64,000 nt of DNA from positions 317,940 through 381,939 of the forward strand of contig CAWHMB010000004.1 of NCBI GenBank assembly GCA_963830405.1, written 5' to 3'. The stretch comes from an uncultured Actinomycetes bacterium (GTDB lineage Bacteria > Actinomycetota > Thermoleophilia > Solirubrobacterales > Solirubrobacteraceae). The notes under the pieces are model-generated. The model was not told the origin of the DNA. It made no database searches and saw only the letters and a list, made by a program, of their open reading frames with translations. The translations under genes and the position numbers were made by a program. Positions 40,118 through 41,172 of this stretch are shown piece after piece (position 1 is the stretch's first letter; every line of letters begins with the position of its first letter).

Positions 40118-40175
40118 GTGCGCCCGAGAGGACGCGAACCTCGACGGACCCAGCGGCCCACGAGGCCCTCAGCCT
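40118..40175 (-). repeat. degenerate direct repeat of tRNA-Leu 3' part (att-like)
   Basis: 58 bp, 53/58 identical to 41086..41143. Confidence 0.85.
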
Positions 40176-40205
40176 GGAGTGCAACCTGCAGTGCGCTCGC
40201 GGCGC

Positions 40206-40757
40206 CTACTGCGTGCCGGGGGGATGGCGGCTGTCCCCGAACGCCGCCGCCTCCGCCTTCTCGCGTGCGCGGTCAGCCGATTGGGCTTCTGCAGCGGCCT
40301 CGCCGGCGCGCTCACGGGCCTCCTCGAGCTCCTCTGCCCGCTGCTGCGCCTCGCGCTCCAGTTCGCGGGCTCGCCGGTTGGCTTCCTCGGCTTCGACCCG
40401 TCGCTGGTGGATCAAGCTCGCGCTGAAGAGCGGGCCGGGAGATTGCAGCGTGACCTTGAACCGGGCGCCCACCGAGGCGACCTGCTCCGCGCTCAGCTCG
40501 TCTTCAGCCGTGCTGCTCCCTGCCTGACCGATCTGTTCGGCGCTGTATGGAACTCGGACGTAATCTCGGCTGAGCACCGCGTCGGCGGCGGGGACCAATG
40601 TGACTTGGCGGCCCAACATCCCACGTTTGACCGACAGCAGAATCGGCTCCTCGGTACCGGAGTCGTAATACACATCTTCCAGACGCCCGGCTTTCTCGCC
40701 GACGCCATCCACTACATCCTGCCCACGCCACGTCTCGATGCGTTCAACGGTTGGCAT
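40206..40757 (-). CDS. PRC-barrel protein with coiled-coil tail
   Basis: WRGQDVVD..GEKAGRLEDVYYD...LVP...VRVPY; EAEEANRRARELERE tail. Confidence 0.75.
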   Translation of the reverse strand: MPTVERIETWRGQDVVDGVGEKAGRLEDVYYDSGTEEPILLSVKRGMLGRQVTLVPAADAVLSRDYVRVPYSAEQIGQAGSSTAEDELSAEQVASVGARFKVTLQSPGPLFSASLIHQRRVEAEEANRRARELEREAQQRAEELEEARERAGEAAAEAQSADRAREKAEAAAFGDSRHPPGTQ

Positions 40758-41086
40758 CCCTAACGGCTCCTTGTATCGCCTTCTTAACGCCCATCGTCGC
40801 CACCTGAACCTCGATCCTGTGCGGTTCCAGCCGCTCGGCGGCCTGTCCGTGCACAGCCCGAGGCCGGGCCCTTTGCCAGCGCCCTCCCATATCGGACCAC
40901 TTGCAGGGAAGCCGAGCAAGGGTGTGCGCACCCGAGCTCGCCACCAGCCGACACGCGTGGGAGGCGGTGACGCAGCTCGACACCCACATATTTCTGTGGC
41001 TGCAGACCGAGCCCGAGCGGCTGGGCGAGCGTCTCGCCCTCGTGCTGGTGTCCGTCGCCGACCGGCGGTTGGTTTGCCCTCCCAAG

Positions 41087-41172
41087 TGCGCCCGAGAGGA
41101 CTCGAACCTCCACGGACCCAGCGGTCCACAAGGCCCTCAACCTTGCGCGTCTACCAATTCCGCCACAGGCGC
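41087..41172 (-). tRNA. tRNA-Leu(GAG)
   Basis: Acceptor GCGCCTG/CGGGCGC, D-loop GGCGGAATTGGTAGAC, anticodon arm CAAGG-TTGAGGG-CCTTG, long variable arm, T-loop GGTTCGAGTCC; CCA not encoded. Confidence 0.95.

Follow-up and report, generated by a model that had tools for sequence, protein, structure and literature searches.

The window analysed here is a 64,000-nt stretch (C4:317940-381939) of a 3.69-Mb assembly (9 contigs, 68% G+C) of an uncultured Solirubrobacterales bacterium. ARAGORN calls a single tRNA in it, an intact tRNA-Leu(GAG) on the minus strand (41086/7-41172; Rfam RF00005, 50.9 bits), and the same program finds no other gene with a GAG anticodon in the genome. The promoter segment upstream of this gene (41173-41220, minus strand) is conserved, and its TATACT box recurs in every relative. 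On the same strand as the tRNA and downstream of it lies, in direct orientation, a displaced copy of its 3' part, a fragment of 58 nt (40118-40175, minus strand) that a repeat search aligns to 41086-41143 with 53 of 58 bases identical (91%) and a spacing of 968. The repeat spans tRNA positions 30-87, that is, the 5' arm of the anticodon stem, the anticodon, the variable arm, the T arm and the 3' end, and this pair is the only long direct repeat within 38-43 kb of the window. Such similarity is far beyond chance: against the whole 3.69-Mb genome, blastn-short scores the pair at E = 2.4e-15 over 54 nt, and at E <= 10 it returns no third or older att copy beyond these two. The fragment is not taken for a tRNA by either program, there being no ARAGORN call and no Rfam call at E <= 1, and there is no clear G+C step at the repeat. 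Repeat search, ARAGORN and Rfam thus agree with an initial annotation made from the letters alone, which had noted a 53/58 direct copy of the tRNA 3' part about 970 bp downstream of the gene.

Only one gene is enclosed by the two copies, as had also been claimed at the outset: an intact PRC-barrel gene of 183 aa (40206-40757, minus strand; Pfam PF05239, E = 5.7e-7), unaccompanied by any integration or transfer gene. Between it and the tRNA extends a non-coding spacer of 328 nt (40758-41085), where intact elements in relatives have the start of their integrase gene. Neither in this spacer nor around the fragment did comparison by tblastn and blastn with integrases and the relatives' islands disclose an integrase or arm remnant, the tRNA overlap being the sole match. 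Directly behind the tRNA (41052-41085), the G+C-rich hairpin and T-run present after tRNA-Leu(GAG) in nearly all relatives are missing, and read-through into the PRC-barrel gene is therefore possible. On the distal side, a remnant of the C-terminal part of a class-II glutamine amidotransferase, broken by a frameshift (39835-40109, plus strand; residues ~191-283 of 284), ends 8 nt from the fragment. With a full-length paralogue as query, tblastn resolves it into two HSPs in different frames (49% and 43%); it represents a decayed distal flank and another sign of erosion. Full-length amidotransferase paralogues occur at C4:382479-383330, just past the window end, and at C4:328502-329332 (window ~10563-11393).

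The fragment has a sharp edge. In the register of the tRNA, positions 30-87 match at 53/58 and positions 1-29 at only 7/29, the latter being chance level (the genomic background for the 5' 29-mer is 8.1 +/- 2.4 matches); a gapped local alignment of the tRNA 5' part with the 60 nt upstream of the fragment was no better than shuffles (p = 0.6). This step in identity, with similarity ending abruptly at position 30, speaks for a displaced tRNA fragment and not for a decayed whole tRNA. The five differences fall at positions 33 (T>C, U33), 43 (T>C), 48 (A>G), 62 (G>C) and 71 (A>C, T-loop A58), four of them raising G+C. At all five, the tRNA copy has the base common to the tRNAs of all relatives, so the changes arose in the fragment. 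U33 and the T-loop A58 are conserved in tRNAs; the changes hit such conserved positions and weaken three stems, so that the fragment is unconstrained DNA. The variable arm of the fragment, GGGCCGCTGGGTCC, has the lineage-specific version CCGCTGGG, while that arm reads CCGCAGGG in the closest relative, G011, CCGTAGGG in G016 and CTGAATGG or similar in most other genomes; thus, the fragment descends from the tRNA of its own lineage.

The same tRNA is used elsewhere in the order. Forty relatives were searched with it, 24 of which belong to the same genus (uncultured Solirubrobacterales), and nine of these 24 have partial copies running from position 28, 30 or 31 to position 86/87. In G007, G008, G015, G019 and G024 the copies lie downstream of the same tRNA, on the same contig and in direct orientation, at a distance of 2.8 kb in G024, 3.1 kb in G019, 7.1 kb in G007 and 31.5 kb in G015, with eight copies spread over 128 kb in G008; those of G006, G011, G014 and G018 are on other contigs. 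G025, from another family of the order, has eight. The 31.5-kb island of G015 is a typical mosaic in which metabolic cargo and the integrase are accompanied by a DUF3987 protein, IS-type rve genes and a Mu/Tn7-like transposase together with an AAA ATPase. Segments running from tRNA to fragment without an integrase also recur (2.8 kb in G024, 3.1 kb in G019); as read from translations alone, the former would hold a peptidase and a methyltransferase and the latter a penicillin-acylase-like gene. The fragments of relatives are ~100% identical to their cognate tRNA, genome-specific variable arm included, against 91% here, and they reach into the terminator hairpin behind the tRNA. On their island side, most same-genus fragments have a common arm, CAATTTGGACGATTTGGACGCTCCTGGAAGCATCTACGCG, with a tandem ATTTGGACG that may correspond to arm-type binding sites, which it resembles.

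Some of these loci are complex. In G008, nine units with tRNA-Leu(GAG) fragments as their boundaries follow one another in tandem over 128 kb (G008:C1:1138342-1267013, L048-L054), with integrase sequence only in the first (frameshifted) and third (truncated) units, and most of its fragments are preceded by the common arm CAATTTGGACGATTTGGACG.... In G025, six fragments follow the tRNA-Leu(GAG) (C1:1661808-1716585, L055-L060) and two more lie ~1.4 Mb away (281238-295277), near the only non-Xer integrase of that genome (260379-260873); all share an arm of their own, AAGATCCCTGCATATGGA.GATACGGTC.... At L149 (1965-2805), two partial tRNA-Leu copies stand 0.75 kb apart just upstream of an integrase, enclosing what looks like a MazF/PemK-type toxin with its antitoxin, to judge by the predicted proteins; this is a further mini-island with a single module. 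In G011, the flank behind the tRNA (C15, L031) and that behind the partial copy (C11, L032) are 77-87% identical over ~6 kb, reflecting a genuine duplication or the binning of two strains into one genome. The G015 fragment (C15:7400-7459, L039) departs from the G015 tRNA in its variable arm; it also shows a compensated T-stem, GGAAG/CTTCT, which is found again in the tRNA of G017. The regenerated tRNA of G015 shows the usual sequence of the genus. On this evidence, the island would have come with a tRNA 3' part of its own and the fragment would be the original 3' end of the host; by the same comparison, the crossover would fall in the anticodon stem-loop, on the 5' side of the variable arm.

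Integrases can be recognised in part of these genomes. A profile search places a PF00589 integrase directly behind the tRNA in G015, G018 and G006, and these proteins combine the domains Phage_integrase and Phage_int_SAM_3. With them as tblastn queries, a frameshifted copy was found behind the tRNA of G008 and a truncated one behind its second fragment, and in G007 the tRNA is followed by an N-terminal remnant of 117 aa; together with the intact genes, every stage from intact to eroded element is therefore seen. In a scan with one genome per species, the family occurs in at least 104 stretches, all from MAGs of uncultured Solirubrobacterales, Solirubrobacteraceae or Actinomycetota. The tRNA context was scored for the best 80 of these at least 104 loci: 72 of the best 80 have a tRNA-Leu 220-340 nt upstream on the same strand, GAG in 48 and CAG in 24, and of the eight with no upstream tRNA three are preceded by a partial copy, being internal units of tandem arrays. 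We conclude that this is a large, undescribed but conventional family of tRNA-Leu-specific tyrosine integrases in soil Solirubrobacterales, whose islands often occur as tandem stacks or have decayed to one or two genes. The fragment in the window has the same boundary as that used by integrase-bearing elements at the orthologous tRNA. In short, the sharp boundary, the partial copies within the genus (nine of 24 genomes) and in a second family, and 72 of the best 80 integrase loci uphold the initial reading of the fragment as the att-type scar of an old island and of this tRNA as an integration hotspot.

Little else of such an element survives in the genome studied here. As the initial annotation had stated, no integrase is present: PF00589 has no match in the window, all nine matches of the profile search lying elsewhere in the genome, and the whole genome contains no homologue of the relatives' tRNA-Leu integrases beyond Xer-like matches of 25-33% identity. 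The conserved arm of the relatives' fragments is absent from the entire genome, and behind the fragment there is no duplicated tRNA terminator. Integrase, arm motif and duplicated terminator all being gone, the past element rests on comparison. No close relative with an empty or a fuller site was found. Across the genus the DNA on the tRNA-distal side is not conserved (tblastx of 16 such flanks gave almost no conservation), which accounts for the lack of a true empty site with the same distal flank. In JGI metagenomes, neither of two exact patterns that would reveal conspecific contigs had a match: one combined the tRNA 3' end with its own spacer, the other was the fragment including its derived bases.

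From this evidence the most coherent history is, in our judgement, a probable one. An island with a tyrosine integrase would have inserted site-specifically into the 3' part of tRNA-Leu(GAG). Island-borne sequence would have regenerated the tRNA on the attL side, and the original 3' part of the host gene (positions 30-87) would have been displaced, forming a direct repeat at the island's opposite end. Subsequent deletions would have stripped out nearly all of the island, integrase and arm sites included, leaving the 328-nt spacer and the intact accessory PRC-barrel gene between tRNA and fragment. The fragment would then have drifted without constraint, as a dead attR-type scar that is neither an active att site nor a tRNA. 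Under this history an island was presumably once here and shrank by deletion, and the PRC-barrel gene may be leftover cargo. The initial annotation had gone as far as a scar reduced to one cargo gene; the PRC-barrel gene is indeed the sole gene enclosed, and it may be either original cargo or a later arrival.

The provenance of that gene is where a competing account has most to say. The gene is accessory: 29 relatives lack it near the tRNA, and none of the 40 relatives has an orthologue, the best match (39% identity) lying elsewhere in the genome concerned. Homologues of equal length and 60-76% identity exist in other Solirubrobacterales MAGs in other contexts. Three of these MAGs have orthologues of 74% identity with no tRNA or att nearby, the DNA homology being confined to the coding region, and their neighbours encode SfLAP, YccF, response regulator, CMD, MalT-like regulator and DUF2252 proteins, the very families that flank the tRNA on both sides in our window. 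The PRC-barrel gene may hence belong to the surrounding cluster and not to the lost island: the repeat would be an att scar all the same, and the gene, from an accessory cluster of stress type, would have come later, through rearrangement or recombination, after loss of the interior. The area has been rearranged, with the frameshifted amidotransferase (GATase) remnant abutting the fragment and 25.3 kb having entered the gap between lexA and the tRNA, and this would suit such a late arrival. Nonetheless, no junction signatures surround the PRC-barrel gene, small att-bounded remnants without integrase are common in relatives, and deletion of the island interior is the simplest history, with fewer events; we regard the later arrival as improbable. 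The GC3 of the PRC, YccF and hyp188 genes (0.74-0.76) is only slightly below that of their neighbours and is not informative here.

The unit might instead still be alive. Tandem units bounded by att copies and devoid of integrase are found in relatives (nine spread through 128 kb of G008, further arrays in G025), and tRNA, PRC-barrel gene and fragment, with both repeat copies present in direct orientation, might form a working minimal element of CIME type, excised or accreted whenever an incoming island supplies the integrase. The fragment, however, is changed at U33 and at position 43, within the anticodon stem-loop where the crossover presumably falls, it has only 91% identity to the tRNA where relatives have ~100%, the relatives' arm is absent from the whole genome, and the genome has no integrase of the tRNA-Leu-specific family. 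A working element is accordingly very unlikely. Equally unlikely is its extension to the order, in which the tRNA-Leu(GAG) locus of uncultured Solirubrobacterales would be a cassette-accretion platform where the widespread tRNA-Leu-specific integrases stack and reshuffle, in trans, att-bounded units without integrase, the PRC unit being still mobilizable; were it true, the units would range from a single gene (PRC) or the toxin-antitoxin-like pair of L149 to nine units over 128 kb. Least credible of all is that integration played no part and that the fragment is a pseudogene, the decayed tandem paralogue of a whole tRNA-Leu gene. Its direct orientation close to the tRNA and a GCGCC motif near the expected 5' end would fit, yet residual similarity does not extend over the full tRNA length, and uniform decay would not leave 29 nt at chance identity beside 58 nt at 91%; the boundary is moreover that of the fragments at integrase-bearing islands. 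A second full tRNA-Leu(GAG) beside the first, which the initial annotation had named as the observation that would overturn its reading, occurs in none of the 40 relatives. We therefore retain the eroded island as the preferred explanation.

The surroundings of the tRNA have a history of their own. As a rule lexA adjoins this tRNA divergently: it does so in 28 of 29 relatives and, among the best 80 integrase loci, in 47 of the 48 that have tRNA-Leu(GAG). Here it lies 25.4 kb away at C4:384585 (window ~66646, outside the window). Homology to G011 stops on the lexA side at C4:384494 (window ~66554) and resumes 48 nt upstream of the tRNA, as judged by blastn of the lexA-tRNA spacer of G011 against the genome studied here. 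The intervening ~25.3 kb are a lineage-specific stretch, delimited by that comparison and described with Pfam, of which 41221-64000 falls in the window. Its genes include a response regulator, a CLC channel, DUF202, SfLAP, FGE with a sulfatase, a Na/H exchanger, a split DUF2252, a second PRC-barrel, CMD, an ion channel and a HisKA_3 kinase. The DUF2252 gene is divided into 49786-50685 (profile 118-391) and 50702-51271 (profile 1-109) and is probably a frameshift or stop pseudogene; the second PRC-barrel gene (215 aa, 51444-52091) lies across the tRNA from the first, within this cluster. The stretch contains no integrase, and its ends offer only one unconvincing direct match of 10 nt, GCGAGTGGCG, at 41246 and ~66519. 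An inversion that had placed cluster genes on both sides of the tRNA was considered and rejected, the tRNA still pointing away from lexA and being direct with the fragment. Most of the window between 20 and 61 kb has no counterpart in G011, G004 or G021, and this region is accessory. Eight neighbouring proteins compared with ~600 kb of the relatives' tRNA-Leu islands gave no meaningful match, only weak partial ones: 48% for the amidotransferase remnant (G008), 33% for PRC (G016) and 35% for the response regulator (G025). The proposal that the hotspot may have fed the surrounding cluster is unsupported, since ~25.3 kb of the cluster stand on the 5' side of the tRNA, where integration at the 3' end cannot place DNA; for the 3' side such a supply is possible.

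Partial 3' copies of other tRNAs also occur in this genome, namely of SeC (two perfect copies), Ala-CGC, Ala-TGC, Glu-CTC, Val-CAC, Lys-CTT and Thr (C1:881657, 887053; C1:961572; C7:210092; C4:547036, 551468; C9:93618; C1:609961; C3:10141), with integrases near those of Ala-CGC and Ala-TGC. The genome thus has several tRNA-targeted islands, and the tRNA-Leu(GAG) fragment is the most degenerate among several such duplications. Dense tandem partial copies of the 3' 60 nt around a 95-nt tRNA-Arg(ACG) call (C4:741473-741994) resemble a tandem repeat derived from the tRNA more than att sites. Overall, the feature is real and ordinary, probably the attR-type scar of an island that targeted tRNA-Leu, of a well-known kind, and its drift indicates that the event is old. 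It explains an odd tRNA-like fragment and marks the neighbourhood of tRNA-Leu(GAG) as a zone of gene flux. The integrase family and its eroded islands should help to annotate MAGs of a poorly known order; they reveal no new kind of biology.

Set against described systems, the locus finds several counterparts. Partial tRNA gene fragments in prokaryotes (PMC9897764) share with it a non-functional partial tRNA next to the canonical gene, although here neither ARAGORN nor Rfam miscalls the fragment as a tRNA. The literature on ICEs and IMEs describes decay to cis-mobilizable elements (CIMEs) and tandem accretion (PMC5704250), to which the small integrase-less units seen here and in relatives correspond, the definition of a CIME being given in that review after Pavlovic et al. 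(2004, Microbiology 150:759). The tandem arrays of units at the same tRNA in relatives are as accretion predicts. CIMEs, however, have functional att sites; on sequence alone, both putative attL/attR copies are present here, but the distal one has five changes including U33, is mutated in the presumed core and lacks the arm motif. The closest parallel is provided by the islands in tRNA and tmRNA genes made by tyrosine integrases, which the Islander approach maps (PMC4383910) and for which the standard model holds that the island regenerates the tRNA and the original 3' end of the host is displaced (PMC4383910). The integrase, a defining feature there, is absent here, and the unit is only 0.97 kb long, with one gene and a degenerate fragment (5/58 changed). 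Both nonetheless share a regenerated intact tRNA at one end, a direct 3' fragment at the other that extends from the anticodon stem-loop region to the 3' end, and a site used by the integrase-bearing islands of relatives.
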